A stretch of 64,000 nt of DNA from a virus: positions 1 through 64,000 of IMG/VR virus record IMGVR_UViG_3300045988_134109; one strand, written 5' to 3'. How positions within the stretch are numbered: position 1 is the first letter of the stretch; each line of letters starts with the position of its first letter. The notes under the pieces are model-generated. The model was given only the letters and a program-made list of their open reading frames with translations. It searched no databases and had not been told where the DNA came from. Below, piece by piece: positions 13,961-33,432 of the stretch. The position numbers were made by a program, and so were the translations under genes.

Positions 13961-15280
13961 ATGATAGAACAGAAAATAAAAATATTGACAGATTTAGGGT
14001 TTGTACCTATGGTGGAGGGAAAAGGAAATACGTTGTTTAGAATGAACGATGTTGTGATGTCGGTGTCAGATCCTAATCAAACACCGGAGCAATTGAGAAA
14101 GGAAGTTATGTCTTTAATAAAAAACAAAGACATAGCAGAAAGAGGCGGACAGGTTCCAGTAGTTAAAGAGCCGGCGCCTGAGCCAGAGCAGGCCCAGAAG
14201 GAGGAACCGGAAGCTCCGGCGGAGGAAGCCGCTCCTAACCCTGGAGAAGAGGATTCGAATCCGTTTACAGAAAATCAGGAAACGTTAGAACCGTTTTATA
14301 TCTGTGATGAGTTAAAGAAGATCGAGACTCCCAAATTCGTAAGATTGACATTAGACGGTAATCGTTTTTATGTAAGAAAGATGGACGATGGGACAGCCAA
14401 GATATACGCCTCGGTAACAACCATGATCAGAGACGGATTCGTAGATGACAAGACGGCTCTTCAAGAATGGAGACAGGAGATGAGGATGATTGGTCGCAAT
14501 CCGGAAGAAGTATCAGAATATGATGCAGATAAAGGAACGATCATGCACTACCTATACGGATTGTACTTGACAGGTAGAGATATGGTCTTAAATCGAAGTT
14601 TTATAGTTAAGACAGTGCAAGAAGGCAAGCTGAAGATATCGAAAAAGAATCTTGACAAATTCTTTGGTAGCATAGATGATCTTGATGATATGATTGTCAG
14701 AGTTATGAAGTTTGCTAAGTTTTGTTCGGAGTATAAGGTTAAGCCGATGATGATTGAAAGAATATTATCATTAGAAGATTATTTGGTAGCTACGCCAATA
14801 GATGCGATGGTTAAAATGACATTCAAATACAAAGAAGAAGGTTATTTTGGAGCCGTGTATCAAAGGGCTACGGGGCAGTTCAAAAAAGGCGATCCGAAGA
14901 AGGAAGTGAGAGAAGTGGAGAAAGAAGAGATTGTTATCTTAGATTTTAAATCAGGTGACATACGAAATGAACACGCTTTTCAATTGGAGGCTGAAAGAAG
15001 AATGGTTAAAAACTGGTACGGAATTGATGCACGTATTATGAATTTTTCTCCAAAAAGCACGAACAGTAAAGGTTATACGCTAAAAGAATGGTCTGATAAA
15101 AATGCTGCTATGGAGAAAGCGGACTGCGTGTTTCAACAAGGTATGTTGAATCACCTTAGAAAAGATAAGAAGTTCAAAGTGAGAAAAGGAGTGCTGAATA
15201 TCAATAAGCCGTACAATGAAGAGGATCATACGGTCGTGTATGATATTGCAGAGGAAATGTCTAAAAGATTCATAATATGA
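13961..15280 (+). CDS. PD-(D/E)xK nuclease, RecB/Cas4/lambda-exonuclease-like (439 aa)
   Basis: motifs IDAMVKM (D), ILDFKSGD (D/ExK) and AFQLEAERRMVKNWY (QxxxY). Confidence 0.5.
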   Translation: MIEQKIKILTDLGFVPMVEGKGNTLFRMNDVVMSVSDPNQTPEQLRKEVMSLIKNKDIAERGGQVPVVKEPAPEPEQAQKEEPEAPAEEAAPNPGEEDSNPFTENQETLEPFYICDELKKIETPKFVRLTLDGNRFYVRKMDDGTAKIYASVTTMIRDGFVDDKTALQEWRQEMRMIGRNPEEVSEYDADKGTIMHYLYGLYLTGRDMVLNRSFIVKTVQEGKLKISKKNLDKFFGSIDDLDDMIVRVMKFAKFCSEYKVKPMMIERILSLEDYLVATPIDAMVKMTFKYKEEGYFGAVYQRATGQFKKGDPKKEVREVEKEEIVILDFKSGDIRNEHAFQLEAERRMVKNWYGIDARIMNFSPKSTNSKGYTLKEWSDKNAAMEKADCVFQQGMLNHLRKDKKFKVRKGVLNINKPYNEEDHTVVYDIAEEMSKRFII

Positions 15281-25835: not shown

Positions 25836-28278
25836 ACTTAGACCTTACCAAAAAGAGGCAGTAGATGCCGGGCTTAAGTTTCTTACAGGAAGATCTAAGA
25901 AGCCTGGCATAATCGTAGCTCCATGCGGATGTCATGCAAAAGGATACGGAATACTCATGTATGACGGGACAATAAAGAAAGTGGAGGATATTGTAGTTGG
26001 AGATAGGGTAATGGGTGATGATGGAACCCCAAGAACTGTCCTGGAATTGCATAATGGAATAGATGACATGTATGAAATAAGACCTTTAAAAGGGAAGCCT
26101 TTTATCGTGAATAAAGGCCATATAATGTCAATGTATAGATTAAAAGATAAACGAAAAGATGGTCCATCTATAGAAGAAGTAAGCATCGGGGAGTATATAA
26201 AATTTGCTCCTTATCATAAGACGATTCTTAAGCTTAGAAGACCAAACGGTTTCGATTTTGAGGAATCTAAAAAGAATATGCCGTTAGATCCTTATTTTTT
26301 GGGATTGAGCCTTGGAGATGGCAGTATCACCTCCAGTCTTAGCATAACTACTCAACGACAAGAAATAGTAGAATATTTATATTCGTTTGTTAAGCAGTAC
26401 AATATGTATATAAGAGTAGCAGAGAAGAAAGGAACTAACAATAAGTCAAAATCTTATTTTTTATCAAAAGGATGTGGAAGAGGTGGGAACCCTATAATAA
26501 ATGCTATTAAAGATATAGGATTATACAATAGAAAATCTGGTGATAAATTTATACCAATACAATATCTTACATCAAATAAAGAAAACAGATATAAACTATT
26601 AGCTGGATTTCTTGACACAGATGCTTATTATAATAAATCAGGAAAAGGGTATGAGTATTGCAGTAAATCTGAAACAATGATGAAACAATTTGTTTTATTG
26701 TGTAGAAGTTTAGGATTGTTATGTTCAGGATACTCATGTAAACTTGTTGATGGTGTAAAATATTATAGAACTGGAATATATGGAAATTTAGAGAATATAC
26801 CCGTAAGGGTTGGTATAAGAAAAGGAGCCAATAGGATAATAAATAAAAATCCATATGTTGTTGGCTTCAAGGTAGAATATGTAGGAAAAGGAGAATATTA
26901 TGGTTTTACAACAGATGGGAACCATTTATATTTGGATGAGCAATGCTTTATTCATCATAATTCGGGAAAATCTTTAATAATATCCAAGATAGCACATGAA
27001 ATAAATAGACCGACGTTAGTATTACAGCCCTCAAAAGAGATTCTGGAGCAGAATTATGCAAAGGCTGTATCATTCGGTTCTAAACCTACCATATATTCTG
27101 CTTCATGTGGTATAAAGGAGCTGTCGGCTATGACTTATGCAACATTAAAGAGCATAAAGAAAGATGTAGCGAAGTTGAAGGATATAGGGATAGATACCTT
27201 ATTGATAGACGAATGTCATTCAGGATATTCCCCAGAAGAAGGTTCTGAATTTATGGAGTTTATGAGCAGGTTTCCAGAGGCGAAGGTGCTGGGCTTCACT
27301 GCCACGCCCTGCCGCCTCCGGACCTACAGCTCCATGCTGGAAGGGAACTATAGCAAGCTCAATATGCTGACGAAAGACGAACATAACTTCTTCAAGAAAA
27401 TAGTTCATGTAACTCAAATACAAGAACTAACCTCTCAAGGGTTTTGGTGTCCACTTAAGTACGAACGATGGTCGTTTGATGAATCGGCTCTGATGTTAAA
27501 CAGTACCGGGGCTGAATACACCAACGAATCTATTAAAGAAAGTATTGTAAGAAATGGCTTAAACAACTCTATCTACAAGCGCCTTCTTCAACTTATGAAC
27601 GAACGTAAAGCCATTTTGGTTTGCATGGATTCTATTGAATCATGTAATAGAATATCAGAGTTCATGAATGCCAAGATGGGAGCCATAACCGGTGTCGTAA
27701 CATCGCTAACAACCAAAAAGAAAAGAGAACAAATCATATCCGATTTCAAAGAAGGTAAGTTGAAGGTGGTTTTTAATTATTCAACGCTTGCTACCGGATT
27801 TGATTTTCCTGAACTTGATTGTGTGATGTTTGGTCGCCCAACTTTCTCATATTCAACGTATTACCAAATATTAGGCCGCGCCATCCGCATCCATCCTGAC
27901 AAGAAAGAGGCACTGATAGTTGATTGCTGCGACAACATGAGGCGCTTCGGCCGAATAGAGGACTTGACAATCGAACAATTTCCTTCTAAGGGTTGGTGTA
28001 TGTTTGCCGGCAATCAACTTCTGTCCAATATAAGGATGGGTGATATTATTACCAAAGACGAGATCCTTCGCCGGGCAGCCTCGCTTAAATCTGTGAATGG
28101 AGATGGTAGGAGAGAAGACGATCTTGACAGTATAATAATGTGGTTTGGAAAATATGAAGGAATTAGATTCAAGGATATACCAGTGTCGTATTTTAGGTTT
28201 TTGGCTGAGAATATGGCAGTAAAACCGGGAGATAGGAAAGAAAAGATTATCGAATATTATAATAGGATAAAGGCATGA
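25825..28278 (+). CDS. SF2 DNA helicase (UvsW/XPB-like; extein of 473 aa) interrupted by an intein in the Walker A motif; C-terminal DUF3820-like tail
   Basis: LRPYQ at the N-terminus, APCG|intein|SGKS reconstitutes APCGSGKS; LIDECH (motif II), GFTATP (III), ILGRAIR (VI); C-terminal IMWFGKYEGIRFKDIPVSYFRFL resembles the FGKYKG...P.SYL.WL domain. Confidence 0.75.
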   Translation: MGFELRPYQKEAVDAGLKFLTGRSKKPGIIVAPCGCHAKGYGILMYDGTIKKVEDIVVGDRVMGDDGTPRTVLELHNGIDDMYEIRPLKGKPFIVNKGHIMSMYRLKDKRKDGPSIEEVSIGEYIKFAPYHKTILKLRRPNGFDFEESKKNMPLDPYFLGLSLGDGSITSSLSITTQRQEIVEYLYSFVKQYNMYIRVAEKKGTNNKSKSYFLSKGCGRGGNPIINAIKDIGLYNRKSGDKFIPIQYLTSNKENRYKLLAGFLDTDAYYNKSGKGYEYCSKSETMMKQFVLLCRSLGLLCSGYSCKLVDGVKYYRTGIYGNLENIPVRVGIRKGANRIINKNPYVVGFKVEYVGKGEYYGFTTDGNHLYLDEQCFIHHNSGKSLIISKIAHEINRPTLVLQPSKEILEQNYAKAVSFGSKPTIYSASCGIKELSAMTYATLKSIKKDVAKLKDIGIDTLLIDECHSGYSPEEGSEFMEFMSRFPEAKVLGFTATPCRLRTYSSMLEGNYSKLNMLTKDEHNFFKKIVHVTQIQELTSQGFWCPLKYERWSFDESALMLNSTGAEYTNESIKESIVRNGLNNSIYKRLLQLMNERKAILVCMDSIESCNRISEFMNAKMGAITGVVTSLTTKKKREQIISDFKEGKLKVVFNYSTLATGFDFPELDCVMFGRPTFSYSTYYQILGRAIRIHPDKKEALIVDCCDNMRRFGRIEDLTIEQFPSKGWCMFAGNQLLSNIRMGDIITKDEILRRAASLKSVNGDGRREDDLDSIIMWFGKYEGIRFKDIPVSYFRFLAENMAVKPGDRKEKIIEYYNRIKA
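25930..26961 (+). mobile_element. intein (344 aa) with a LAGLIDADG homing-endonuclease domain
   Basis: starts with Cys (CHAKGYGILMYDGT..VEDIVVGDRV Hint block A) and ends ...CFIHHN followed by Ser of the extein; internal FLGLSLGDGSI and LAGFLDTDAY LAGLIDADG motifs. Confidence 0.8.
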
Positions 28279-28631: not shown

Positions 28632-28877
28632 ATGAAAACAAATGAATTAAGGGAAATACTTAAATTGTATGGTCTTCAACATGATGTTGTTATCAACAAA
28701 AGTTCAAGAAGGTATTCTATTATCTTAGATAATAACATAATAGGAACCAATCACGACAAAGAGAGGGTGGTTGTGTTCCGTCCTATACCGGAAGGGAAAA
28801 ACACATTCTGCATGGAGCGAGATAGGTTCTACACGGAGTTTGAAGAAGCTTTTGATGATGTTGACATACTCCCATAG
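28632..28877 (+). CDS. 5' part of a gene disrupted by the IS insertion (76 native codons, then 5 codons plus stop from the IS end)
   Basis: SD GGAAGGAG then ATG; the reading frame runs into TTGACATACTCCCATAG of the IS right end. Confidence 0.6.
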   Translation: MKTNELREILKLYGLQHDVVINKSSRRYSIILDNNIIGTNHDKERVVVFRPIPEGKNTFCMERDRFYTEFEEAFDDVDILP

Positions 28878-29776
28878 CTAAAGCAAATGGGATTCTTGGA
28901 TACAAACGTATGGAACCCCGGTATTTCTACCGCTGGAATTACCCATACTCTCCAATTCGGAAATGCCCTTCCGAAGTATATTACGGGCTGCAAGAACATC
29001 ACGGTCGTTGACCGCGCCGCACGACGGGCATACCCACGTGCGGTCGCGTAACGACAGACCTTTATTAATGCAGCCACATTCACAAGTTTTGGAAGAAGGA
29101 TACCATTTATCATTTGTTCCCATCACTTTTAGTTAGATAAGTTTTCAGGCCAAAATCCAATCCGATAGATGCACCATCATGTGTCTTTCTATAAGAGTTT
29201 GAAGGATTATGATCTGTAACTATAATCAAACTAAAGCGGGAACAGGTTTCTTTAACTATTCTTATTTGTTTAACATTACCTTCGTAGACTCTACTGTATG
29301 AAAATCTAAATCGTTTCTTCCCTTTGTTAATTGTTAAACAATTACCATTCAGGGTAAAACCACCTTGTTTGAAAACAAAAGAATTGAATTTCTCCGGTGA
29401 TTTAAACTTAGGAGGTCGTTTAGCCAACTTCTTAAAGAAACGATTATAAGATTCATCAAGACGTTCAAGTATTTCTTGTGTTGTTTGGGAATGAAGCAAG
29501 TTTCTTTTAATTCTTTTGGCAAAATACTTCTTCATTTTGCCAACTGAGATATATTTTCCAAACAGTTTGTAATACCTACGTTGTAGAGCTAACGCATGAT
29601 TCCACACAAAACAACATTCACGAAGTATCTTGACAAGATACTTCGTTTTCTTCGAATGATAGATGTTGTATTTGTATGAAATCATTTTTTTATCTGTAAT
29701 TTTGATTCAAAATTAATCAAACCAATTCATCCACCTTCTAAAGTATGGTGGTTTTGTTGGTTAAATAATCATAAAA
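28861..29776 (-). mobile_element. IS200/IS605-family TnpB-only element, copy 2 (916 bp, decayed)
   Basis: the right end (28861-28993) is ~90% identical to 42783-42915; 29466-29776 matches 10219-10514; the flanking ORFs fuse in frame when 28861-29776 is removed. Confidence 0.8.
28878..29685 (-). pseudogene. tnpB: tnpB pseudogene: N-terminal 191 aa (through RuvC-I IGLDFGL) plus a frameshifted C-terminal 82 aa (zinc finger CxxC..CxxC plus RuvC-III DRDVLAARNI); ~100 aa including RuvC-II are missing
   Basis: two ORFs at 29110-29685 and 28878-29126 overlap in different frames; the N-terminus MISYKYNIYHS..CCFVWNHAL is typical of OrfB/TnpB. Confidence 0.75.
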
Positions 29777-31434: not shown

Positions 31435-31487
31435 ATAATTTGATTATTTTACAAATAACGATTACATTTACGATATAAATCATTCAA

Positions 31488-32678
31488 ATGAGATTAGTTG
31501 AAAGGCATATAGTTAAAGACAACCGGTTTGAGGATATTTGCTTCAAATCCGGCTTGTTATATAATTATGTTCTTTACAACATTCGTCAAGGAATCTTTTC
31601 AGGTAACTATTTAAAGGAATTTGATTTATCAGACAAACTTTGCAAAGAAAACCAATTCGATTTCAGGAATTTACCTAATCATGTATCCCAACAGGTGATT
31701 AAACAGGTATTTAAAAACATAAAATCCTGGATAAAACTCAAGAAGGATTTTGAAAAGAATCCTTCTAAATACGGAAATCATAGACCTCACCTTCCATCAT
31801 ACAAACAAGGTAAGAAACAAAACATGGTTGTTTTCACCAACTGCAATTGTAGGGTAAAGGGTGATAATTGTATTTATTTTGTTAAAGATATAATCAAACC
31901 TATCAAAACAAATGTAAAGAAAGACGAACTAAAACAAGTTAGAATAATCCCTCAAGCTACATGTTATGTAGTAGAGGTAGTTTATGAAAGAAAGGAAACT
32001 GATCTTGGTTTAAACAAAGACAATTTTCTTTCGATTGATTTAGGATTGAATAATTTATGTTCATGTATTAGTAATGTAGAAACTAATTCTTTCATTATAA
32101 ACGGACGGGTTATGAAATCAGTAAATCAGTGGTACAATAAGAAGAAAGCTAAGTTGATGTCTTTTGTTGGTAATAAGGGAACTTCAAATAGAATAAGAAA
32201 AATTACTTTGTTTAGAAATTGTTGGATAGAAGACAAATTGCATAAAATCAGTAGATACATTGTAGACTTTTGTAAATCTAACAATATAGGAACAATCATC
32301 ATTGGATTAAACAAAGAATGGAAAAACGAGATAAATATCGGTAAAAGGAATAACCAACATTTTGTTTCTATTCCTCATTCTAAATTGATCGATAAGATTG
32401 TTTACAAAGCAAATCTTTTAGGGATAGAGGTAATTACTCATGAGGAATCTTACACATCAAAGATTGACCATCTTGCTTTTGAACCTCTAAAGAAACAAGA
32501 ATCCTATTTAGGGAAAAGAAAGAAACGTGGATTATTCCAAAGTTCCGTTGGAAAGCTAATTAATGCTGATATTAATGGAGCTATAGGAATAGCAAGAAAA
32601 GTAGTCGGTGATTCTTTCATTGGAAAGATAATCGATAGTGGATTTGTGTTTAATCCGGTTAGAATAAATATTTTGTGA
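31488..32678 (+). CDS. tnpB: full-length TnpB (IS200/IS605 OrfB-type RNA-guided nuclease homolog, 396 aa); RuvC-I/II/III residues present, zinc-finger cysteines absent
   Basis: LSIDLGLNN (RuvC-I D), ITHEESYTSKIDH (RuvC-II E), INADINGAIGIARK (RuvC-III D, NADxNAAxNIA pattern); the segment between RuvC-II and RuvC-III (SKIDHLAFEP...RGLFQSSVGKL) has no CxxC pairs. Confidence 0.75.
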   Translation: MRLVERHIVKDNRFEDICFKSGLLYNYVLYNIRQGIFSGNYLKEFDLSDKLCKENQFDFRNLPNHVSQQVIKQVFKNIKSWIKLKKDFEKNPSKYGNHRPHLPSYKQGKKQNMVVFTNCNCRVKGDNCIYFVKDIIKPIKTNVKKDELKQVRIIPQATCYVVEVVYERKETDLGLNKDNFLSIDLGLNNLCSCISNVETNSFIINGRVMKSVNQWYNKKKAKLMSFVGNKGTSNRIRKITLFRNCWIEDKLHKISRYIVDFCKSNNIGTIIIGLNKEWKNEINIGKRNNQHFVSIPHSKLIDKIVYKANLLGIEVITHEESYTSKIDHLAFEPLKKQESYLGKRKKRGLFQSSVGKLINADINGAIGIARKVVGDSFIGKIIDSGFVFNPVRINIL

Positions 32679-32694
32679 TATAAGGTTGAATCTA

Positions 32695-33432
32695 ATGAAT
32701 AAAATGAATAATTTTAATAACATTAACTACGCAGCAAAAGCCAGAAAAGCTTATTTGATAAATAATTTCGATAAGATTCTTAACAGCCTCAACACGCTTC
32801 ATTCAACGGTTGAAACCATGACGTTGTTCGTAAATGACCAGGCTTATAATTACATTCTTAAGCTGAAGGAAGTGATTAAGGGCGGCCCTATGTACAGGCA
32901 TAATGTCAAACGATTTTTGAATGAGATGGATAAGGAGATAAAGAAGTATAATGCTTCTATCTACTACATAAATAAAGAGCGTAGTGAGGTTATAGCTGAT
33001 ATAACACAAGCGATGGAAGATTACCTCATGCCATACATAGACGACCTGGCCGGCGCTATAAGGGCAGCCGTGTGGTCGAGGGGTGTATCCGAGGAGCGGA
33101 CGGAGGTGGCGGTACTGTCCCTAATCGTATCCTCCTTGGCCACGACATCAGGCAGACTTATCTCAGGTGGATATCAGATCATGAAAGAAATGGGTGGGGG
33201 TCAAGGTGGTAATCCATTTACGTTTATGAGCATTGATAAGATAAGACACTTATCTACATCATTATCTGATGCTATTACCGGTGGAGAAATAGCTCTTGAA
33301 GAAAAAGAAGCCAATGACATAACTAAGGCAATGGATGTTTTTATTGAGAAAATGTCAGATTCGTATATTGTTGATAAGGTGATCAGCATACTTGAAGAGG
33401 CAGAATCTAAAAACAAGGAGGAAGTATCATGA
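32695..33432 (+). CDS. hypothetical protein (246 aa from the ATG at 32695)
   Basis: the track start at 32686 is TTG, 8 nt after the tnpB stop; the first ATG is at 32695. Confidence 0.5.
   Translation: MNKMNNFNNINYAAKARKAYLINNFDKILNSLNTLHSTVETMTLFVNDQAYNYILKLKEVIKGGPMYRHNVKRFLNEMDKEIKKYNASIYYINKERSEVIADITQAMEDYLMPYIDDLAGAIRAAVWSRGVSEERTEVAVLSLIVSSLATTSGRLISGGYQIMKEMGGGQGGNPFTFMSIDKIRHLSTSLSDAITGGEIALEEKEANDITKAMDVFIEKMSDSYIVDKVISILEEAESKNKEEVS

Follow-up and report, generated by a model that had tools for sequence, protein, structure and literature searches.

The gene for a superfamily 2 (SF2) helicase in the virus record IMGVR_UViG_3300045988_134109 is interrupted in its ATP-binding P-loop (the Walker A motif) by an in-frame insert of 344 amino acids (aa). 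The stretch analyzed, referred to here as the window, comprises positions 1 to 64,000 of that record (64,000 nucleotides, nt), and the gene lies at 25825–28278 on the plus strand, as do all of the intein and extein features described below. We are highly confident in reading the insert as a class-1 intein with a PI-SceI-type endonuclease, predicted to splice canonically and to be mobile or to have been so very recently. A wider account, to which we incline modestly, is that the intein has been caught midway through the invasion of a natural human-gut phage population (about 3% of sampled relatives, at least four helicase backgrounds, and 99.0–99.8% identity), that it moves with a minimal, one-sided tract of 17–53 nt carrying the +1 Ser codon, and that endonucleases of its clade hop from P-loop to P-loop between unrelated NTPase genes (helicases, RecA, DnaB, AAA, kinases, and terminases).

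Intein boundaries, domains, and splicing residues

The helicase precursor is a single uninterrupted frame of 817 aa plus stop, in which N-extein, intein, and C-extein follow one another. The N-extein (25825–25929) contributes 35 aa and ends with the first half of Walker A (…GIIVAPCG); the intein (25930–26961; codons 36–379, 1032 nt) starts with CHAKGYGILMYDGT and ends with CFIHHN; and the C-extein (26962–28278; 438 aa plus stop) resumes with SGKSLII, and includes the second half of Walker A (SGKS), the remaining part of the ResIII/DEXH region, Helicase_C, and a C-terminal extension, as seen by translation, Pfam matches, and alignment to the intein-less allele of phage csAssE-Sib. The insertion point is in frame after Gly35 and before the 'x' residue of Walker A (GxxG|xGKS; APCG|C...HHN|SGKS). 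An earlier note, made from the nucleotide sequence by itself, had given these coordinates, flanks, and the 344-aa length, and translation shows them to be exact to the base. The gene should be recorded as a single helicase precursor with an intein, and neither as a fusion nor as two genes.

ResIII, Helicase_C, and Hom_end_hint all exceed their Pfam curated cutoffs when the entire 817-aa protein is scanned. With the insert present, the ResIII match covers model positions 34–163 (52 bits); with the insert removed it covers positions 2–163 (74.6 bits; cutoff 22.5), and this lengthening indicates an SF2 helicase that is ordinary except for the break which the insert makes in its Walker A loop. The spliced helicase sequence also matches Helicase_C (63 bits; cutoff 23.5) and DEAD (35.9 bits; cutoff 26), SWI2_SNF2 passes as well, and the PHROG match of the host is phrog_16 'DNA helicase' (1e-68). 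The spliced sequence has both RecA-like domains, Walker A, a DEXH motif (DECH, readable within LLIDECH), and Helicase_C, and the host is an SF2 helicase whose Walker A motif is split by the insert, as the earlier note had it. The note also took the insertion as a sign that the helicase is essential, which it may be.

Judged by its sequence, the insert is a genuine class-1 intein with all of the canonical splicing residues: Cys1, His64, block F, His343-Asn344, and Ser+1. The N-terminal Hint subdomain (residues 1 to about 107; 25930–26250) includes blocks A and B; Hom_end_hint matches residues 1–52, and the structural model has beta strands between residues 7 and 103. Cys1 is encoded by TGT at 25930–25932, is invariant in alignment A2, and begins a CHAKG motif that aligns with CFAKG of PI-SceI. 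Block B is Asn61-x-x-His64 (N61-K-G-H64; 26110–26121), where H64 is at least 90% conserved in 30 homologues and N61 and H64 are both invariant in alignment A2; block B of PI-SceI would likewise be N-x-x-H and not T-x-x-H, in a sequence of which HMMER alignments corroborate residues 1–57 and 210–454. The C-terminal Hint subdomain (26854–26961) contains block F (GEYYGFTTDGNHLYL), which aligns to PI-SceI …DDYYGITL..DSDHQFLLANQVVVHN, and block G (CFIHHN), in which FIHHN|S aligns with VVVHN|C of PI-SceI and H343 and N344 are invariant. The Hint N-terminal block and the terminal HN followed by Ser, both described previously, are thus present and aligned to PI-SceI.

Nested within the Hint domain is a putative double-LAGLIDADG endonuclease domain (approximately residues 118–290; 26281–26799), with two alpha-beta-beta-alpha-beta-beta-alpha halves in the predicted secondary structure (H121–130 to E276–284) and in Foldseek comparison. 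The two LAGLIDADG motifs reported at the outset (FLGLSLGDGS, residues 123–132, and LAGFLDTDAY, residues 224–233) both align to PI-SceI motifs. Motif 1 (FLGLSLGDG, residues 123–131; 26296–26322) aligns to YLLGLWIGDG and includes the putative catalytic Asp130, and motif 2 (LAGFLDTDA, residues 224–232; 26599–26625) aligns to FLAGLIDSDG and includes the putative catalytic Asp231, such that each has an acidic residue at position 8 of the LAGLIDADG; the catalytic Asp residues of PI-SceI are those of its LAGLIDADG motifs. Among homologues, G125 is invariant and D130 and G131 are at least 90% conserved in motif 1, and in motif 2 G226 and D229 are invariant and L224, A225, and D231 are at least 90% conserved.

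The earlier note had proposed comparison with Pfam Hint and LAGLIDADG models, and the two kinds of model differ in outcome. On the insert alone, Hom_end_hint (PF05203) scores 69.4 bits against a cutoff of 32.1; LAGLIDADG_3 (20.5 bits vs 22.5) and Hom_end (19.8 vs 21.1) both fall just under their gathering scores, so the endonuclease assignment rests on profile alignment to Protein Data Bank (PDB) entries and on the fold match. The precomputed Pfam matches of most homologues include PF05204 and PF14528. PI-SceI is the best PDB sequence match of the insert (E=1.9e-17), in two segments corresponding to the N-terminal Hint and the endonuclease, the latter pairing YFLGLSLGDG with YLLGLWIGDG and LLAGFLDTDAY with FLAGLIDSDGY. 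Alignment A1, of the insert and 29 homologues, was the input for a profile search and for an AlphaFold2 model. In the profile search the E-value for PI-SceI is 4.5e-50, the alignment takes in block A, the two LAGLIDADG motifs, block F (GEYYGF…DGNH.FL with DDYYGITL…DSDHQFLL), and the terminal HN, and the endonuclease domain matches PI-SceI residues 210–454 with an i-E of 1e-29. The model has a mean predicted local distance difference test (pLDDT) score of 92.6 and a predicted template modeling (pTM) score of 0.90. The top eleven PDB matches in Foldseek are all PI-SceI (E=1e-24 to 7e-21; query-normalized TM 0.71–0.79), followed by TliVMA, PhoVMA, PI-PfuI, the Prp8 and gp41-1 mini-inteins, and the free-standing I-DmoI (E about 1e-5); matches to endonuclease domains also include I-Tsp061I. 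The secondary structure elements of the model (H121–130/E/E/H144–155/E/E/H188–195 and H217–228/E/E/H248–260/E/E) form a pseudo-dimeric LAGLIDADG fold, and with this confidently predicted fold the putative endonuclease is of the PI-SceI double-LAGLIDADG type. Neither a homologous insert of non-intein type in related helicases nor a failure of the motif assignments in HMM comparison was encountered.

By analogy with the class-1 pathway, folding of the Hint domain would bring both junctions of the precursor together, Cys1 would undergo an N-S acyl shift to form a thioester, and the N-extein would move to Ser+1. Cyclization of Asn344, aided by His343, would then free the 344-aa intein, and an O-N shift would yield a mature helicase of 473 aa with its P-loop restored to APCGSGKS. 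Before splicing, with its ATP-binding loop disrupted, the helicase presumably has no activity.

Two other kinds of element were considered and rejected. A group I intron or free-standing endonuclease gene does not fit a continuous frame with no internal stop or start context, and a bacterial intein-like (BIL) or other non-canonical Hint domain does not fit the presence of the terminal His-Asn, the +1 Ser, and the endonuclease. The insert also has PHROG matches to 'terminase large subunit' and 'DNA primase', and these reflect inteins inside some members of those families and not function. No further intein of the same clade was found elsewhere in the window with a local HMM search of 155 six-frame ORFs (open reading frames).

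Empty alleles and the probable spread of the intein

The earlier note had advised looking for intein-less alleles in related phages, and one is readily identified. A megablast search of the gene against GenBank phages returns a single record, phage csAssE-Sib (OR575929.1, 151 kb, human gut), in two pieces with 57% query coverage. Its 'ATP-dependent DNA helicase' (WOZ57338.1) is 1422 nt and 473 aa in length, exactly 817 minus 344, and when the 1032 nt are taken out of the window gene the two are collinear and gapless, with 56 nt differences (96.1% identity) and 8 aa differences; in the N-extein, 104 of the 105 nt are the same. The similarity extends beyond the gene, with 93.8% identity between window positions 14000–38000 and csAssE-Sib across 82% of that length, and the window is therefore from a close relative of this phage. 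A literature search found nothing on 'csAssE-Sib'.

The csAssE-Sib empty allele reads APCG-C-GKS, and its empty-site DNA is GTAGCCCCATGCGGATGTGGAAAGAGCCTTCTGATATCCAAG. The earlier claim that removal of the insert reconstitutes a canonical APCGSGKS therefore stands as a reading of the window sequence, but the natural empty allele has Cys at the 'x' position, and others have Ala or Ser. At this position (intein +1, helicase codon 36), 74 anchored empty alleles in IMG/VR have Cys (58), Ala (15), or Ser (1), and the predicted spliced form, APCG-S-GKS, is evidently a state that the P-loop tolerates.

Uninterrupted genes are the rule among the relatives of the window. All 80 of the best 80 IMG/VR helicase loci (L002–L081) have an uninterrupted 473-aa gene, and an exact-junction scan finds the empty junction in at least 117 IMG/VR contigs and the occupied junction in four; a protein search recovered the same four occupied contigs. 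Two of these, L082 and L084, do not differ in the gene or its 3-kb flanks, such that there are four distinct occupied backgrounds including the window.

These alleles bear on whether the insert splices at all. It is very improbable, in our assessment, that the insert is a non-splicing one that has either inactivated the helicase (as an incipient pseudogene) or been kept as a permanent extra domain. The canonical catalytic residues are all present and conserved, the 817-aa frame is intact in all five occupied genomes, and the divergence from csAssE-Sib is mostly synonymous, with the 8 aa changes set against 56 nt changes. A 344-aa domain left in Walker A would not allow ATP to bind, and yet all of the related contigs sampled conserve the helicase. 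What such an explanation has in its favor is the case of P0001, the closest of the intein's distant relatives, whose host helicase ORF is cut short soon after the intein.

They also bear on a proposal that the intein acts in addition as a conditional post-translational switch, for example through redox- or metal-sensitive splicing in which Cys1 and the Cys at −2 keep the P-loop broken. A Cys does lie two residues ahead of Cys1, and PMC6195587, PMC7360933, and PMC8557812 report that splicing of mycobacterial DnaB P-loop inteins is conditional on oxidative stress, zinc, and reactive chlorine. The −2 Cys (APCG|C) belongs to the host P-loop, however, and is present in all of the empty alleles as well, and hence did not arise to serve the intein; the intein is missing from about 97% of sampled relatives, which argues against a needed regulatory role. 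We consider a switch improbable.

The occupied alleles are much more alike in the intein than in the sequences beside it. Between occupied backgrounds the intein differs at 2–10 of 1032 nt (0.2–1.0%) and the adjoining C-extein at 23–67 of 1317 nt (1.7–5.1%), and the contrast is significant in the three pairs that include the window (Fisher's exact p=4e-15, 8e-10, and 1e-6). Every distinct occupied C-extein is nearer to an empty allele than to the other distinct occupied alleles; that of L083 is 5 nt from L008 and L010 and at least 23 nt from other occupied alleles, and that of L082 is 10 nt from L020 and at least 33 nt from other occupied alleles. The 3-kb flanks are 92–99% identical among the occupied genomes, which are not mutual best matches, and no long shared upstream flank (as in long 5' co-conversion) is present in the occupied alleles, in which the upstream 3 kb are only 94–96.5% identical. 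The occupied and empty genomes L083 and L008 (3300045988_115339 and _106933) share 99.5% identity in the 3 kb downstream of the intein site and 95.8% upstream, a step which places a recombination breakpoint at the intein site; upstream of that site, none of the 85 examined loci closely matches L083. The intein also forms a dip in composition, with a GC content of 0.32 and a third-position GC content (GC3) of 0.23, as compared to 0.41 and 0.42 for the extein.

Immediately downstream of the intein, the first six C-extein codons (SGKSLI; 26962–26979; TCGGGAAAATCTTTAATA), including that for the +1 Ser nucleophile, are shared by the occupied alleles, as a co-converted 3' flank would be. Ten of the 56 differences from csAssE-Sib cluster in 17 nt of this tract, a clustering matched in 0 of 200,000 permutations (p<5e-6), and six of its nucleotide states are common to the four distinct occupied alleles and absent from all 81 empty alleles compared. 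Eight of the ten changes are synonymous, which fits co-conversion rather than selection on the protein; the other two are the Cys→Ser change at +1 and a Leu→Ile change. The tract has a GC content of 0.24, near that of the intein, and the same 21 nt in empty alleles have 0.43. On the 3' side the window departs from the other occupied alleles at spliced position 159, and the shared tract stops short of this position, less than 54 nt downstream, giving a range of 17–53 nt; on the 5' side it extends for less than 10 nt, with L085 differing at −9 to −12. The occupied-type tract joined to the 5' side without the intein is CCATGCGGATCGGGAAAATCTTTAATAATATCC, and the 3' tract without the intein is in no IMG/VR contig. 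At the junctions of two distant intein-bearing helicases, L209 and L210, SGKSL[IV]I is encoded by different codons.

These observations suggest how the intein may spread. During co-infection the freed endonuclease would recognize and cut the P-loop codons of an empty allele, using Asp130 and Asp231, as PI-SceI-type biology and the population data would have it, and repair off the occupied allele would copy the intein and, along with it, 17–53 nt of the 3' flank and less than 10 nt of the 5' flank. The copied flank would carry the +1 Ser codon, such that recipient alleles with Cys, or even Ala, could become splicing-competent; Ala-type empty alleles would not be competent for splicing unless the +1 codon were co-converted, and the shared tract would supply the Ser. 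The simplest interpretation of the sequences is that an AT-rich foreign element recently entered this lineage and was copied into several helicase backgrounds by double-strand-break repair at a fixed site. The population pattern points to recent homing by the putative endonuclease, with which it is consistent, but it is not proof.

Several points weigh against a recently mobile intein with a PI-SceI-type endonuclease. The contrast between intein and extein is not significant for L083 and L085 (p=0.16), and the direct donor of the 3' tract is unsampled and was not found in IMG/VR. Most of the contigs are from one IMG dataset (3300045988), and the occupancy of about 3% is not a clean population frequency. 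In the intein itself, the polymorphisms are few and mostly non-synonymous (5 of 9 in L083), as would also be seen if a decaying endonuclease were under relaxed constraint; the last residue of motif 2 is Ala instead of Gly; Ser127 within motif 1 of the window intein (26308–26310) is replaced by Cys in all four IMG/VR copies; and, as described above, both Pfam endonuclease models score just under their cutoffs. The pattern as a whole could also have arisen if the intein invaded once and was then passed on by ordinary homologous recombination between mosaic phages that circulate together.

An explanation built on this last point, which we think unlikely although clearly worth weighing, is that the intein is splicing-competent and its endonuclease inactive, with a single old invasion and general homologous recombination among mosaic gut phages accounting for its distribution. 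The flanks are indeed mosaic in all of the genomes, the step in identity between L083 and L008, the few and mostly non-synonymous polymorphisms, and the sub-cutoff Pfam scores are in keeping with it, and related helicases with mini-inteins at this site (P0038, P0040, and P0051) show that endonuclease loss has occurred in the lineage. However, tight and identical segment ends in all of the distinct backgrounds are expected of double-strand-break repair at a fixed site and not of random crossovers, the intein is 5–25 times less diverged than the adjoining extein, both putative catalytic Asp residues and the entire endonuclease fold are intact, and the GC3 of the intein has not been ameliorated towards that of its host. 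We therefore retain the reading of a recently mobile intein with a PI-SceI-type endonuclease.

The host helicase and neighboring genes

The RadD (YejH) equivalog was tried as an identity for the host helicase and rejected: NCBIfam NF053632 is the top-scoring NCBIfam family, but at 183.4 bits against a cutoff of 720 membership fails, and from its sequence the host is best described as RadD-like only. A role in replication or repair may be read from the neighboring genes.

A PD-(D/E)XK nuclease is encoded upstream at 23942–24961 (plus strand; PDDEXK_1, 74.7 bits), and two small genes separate it from the helicase. Its counterpart in csAssE-Sib is annotated as an exodeoxyribonuclease, and fits a recombination/replication module.

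We note that the intein is one of three mobile-element differences from csAssE-Sib within about 7 kb. Just downstream of the helicase operon, about 0.9 kb (28861–29767) is absent from csAssE-Sib and holds a split or shortened TnpB-like gene in minus-strand ORFs 29110–29685 and 28878–29126, of which one weakly matches HTH_OrfB_IS605 and the next, which overlaps it, has a Cas12f1-like TNB domain (50 bits); this segment is probably a decayed IS605/OMEGA-type element. Further to the right, a full-length TnpB of 396 aa is encoded at 31488–32678 (plus strand; OrfB_IS605, 64.5 bits; TNB, 32.7 bits), and the segment around it (31437–32721, roughly 1.3 kb) has no csAssE-Sib counterpart. Conversely, a cytosine-5 DNA methyltransferase gene in csAssE-Sib (L001, 9312–10439) has no counterpart in the window.

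Relatives of the intein and comparison with known systems

A search with the insert of about 5.8 billion proteins yields 62 matches at E≤1e-5; the exact intein was not found in this collection, and the best match is only 50% identical, a level at which the divergence to the next relative is saturated. By their Pfam domains, the hosts of these relatives include ResIII helicases, RecA, UvrD, DnaB, thymidine kinase, AAA ATPases, a type II secretion ATPase, and terminase. Both junctions could be resolved in 26 of the relatives, of which 15 share the sub-site of the window intein (G|xGK[ST]), nine are inserted at GK|[ST], and two lie outside the P-loop, and from these sequence comparisons the intein is a member of a PI-SceI-type clade that is strongly tied to the Walker A loops of unrelated NTPases. 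One copy, with 39% identity, is in another SF2 helicase on a 226-kb viral contig, at AATG|C…QHN|SGKT.

The closest distant relative, P0001 (L210, 3001–4245), is 50% identical and is encoded in a helicase ORF of 414 aa in total that stops 32 aa past the intein. Its locus is flanked by HNH/NUMOD4 homing-endonuclease-like genes, and its host may be a decayed gene in a mobile-element-rich region.

The near-isogenic occupied and empty alleles, the sharp boundaries of the mobile unit, and the related copies in unrelated P-loops make this a clean natural system, in which it can be tested directly how often homing occurs, how long the co-converted tracts are, and how specific the endonuclease is for its target, including whether other P-loops are tolerated. 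As a compact intein and putative endonuclease of PI-SceI type (344 aa) with a high-confidence predicted structure, it may also interest intein or meganuclease engineers.

PI-SceI, the Saccharomyces cerevisiae VMA1 intein (PDB 1VDE, 1EF0, and 1LWS), is the best match of the window intein by sequence, profile, and fold. Both belong to the Hom_end_hint family and have a Hint domain split by a double-LAGLIDADG endonuclease, Cys1, a terminal His-Asn, and both LAGLIDADG Asp residues. Their identity is only about 20–27%, however, and the window intein is 344 aa as compared to 454 aa for PI-SceI, with alignment gaps showing that it lacks most of the additional sequence that PI-SceI has from block B to the endonuclease. 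The +1 residue is Ser in the window and Cys in PI-SceI, and the site is the P-loop of a phage SF2 helicase, whereas the yeast VMA1 junction (…VG|C…HN|CGER) is not in a GxxGxGKS context.

The niche itself is well documented. Insertion in P-loops has been called 'classic', with about 70% of inteins located in ATP-binding proteins (PMC4760082, PMC5050341), and inteins are strongly enriched in ATP-binding and replication/repair proteins, with P-loop insertions in DnaB (site b), MCM (site a), RFC-S (site a), and many others (PMC4760082). In mycobacteriophages, the commonest TerL1 inteins (sites a and b) are in Walker A according to PMC5050341, which lists two helicase inteins and regards the K|T junction as the 'classic' one for P-loops. 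The window intein resembles the DnaB-b, MCM-a, RFC-S-a, and TerL1 inteins in being inserted in Walker A of an ATPase, which for these inteins is part of the replication or packaging machinery, and the likeness is one of site. It differs from them in residing in a ResIII/DEXH SF2 helicase, encoded by a human-gut phage of roughly 150 kb, and in its sub-site, G|xGKS, three residues upstream of the K|T junction of PMC5050341.

The distribution of its relatives is reminiscent of Anaeramoeba 'cluster 1' (Gallot-Lavallée et al. 2023, PMC10710043), whose inteins are monophyletic, have phage relatives, and all lie in P-loops of non-homologous proteins, a pattern interpreted there as P-loop-to-P-loop transfer. 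In the window clade, 24 of the 26 resolved junctions are likewise in P-loops; the likeness is by description only, and whereas the window intein has the canonical Cys1, cluster 1 is found in a eukaryotic nuclear genome and is described as having atypical N-terminal residues.

Closer in site are the mini-inteins P0040, P0038, and P0051, which have the same insertion point (PTG|CHAKG…HHN|[ST]GKSL) in homologous ResIII and Helicase_C phage helicases, and are up to 68% identical to the window intein in the N-terminal Hint region. At 140–174 aa and without an endonuclease domain, they stand further along the homing cycle; the helicases that carry them are only distantly related (LPTG in place of the APCG context), and their flanking DNA is unlike the co-converted tract of the window. 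This kind of selfish element, its niche, and the pattern of P-loop hopping are thus already known, and the window changes no concepts; the novelty lies in this allele, in its residence in a RadD-like SF2 helicase from an abundant lineage of gut phages (roughly 150 kb), and in the clean snapshot of a population that it provides.

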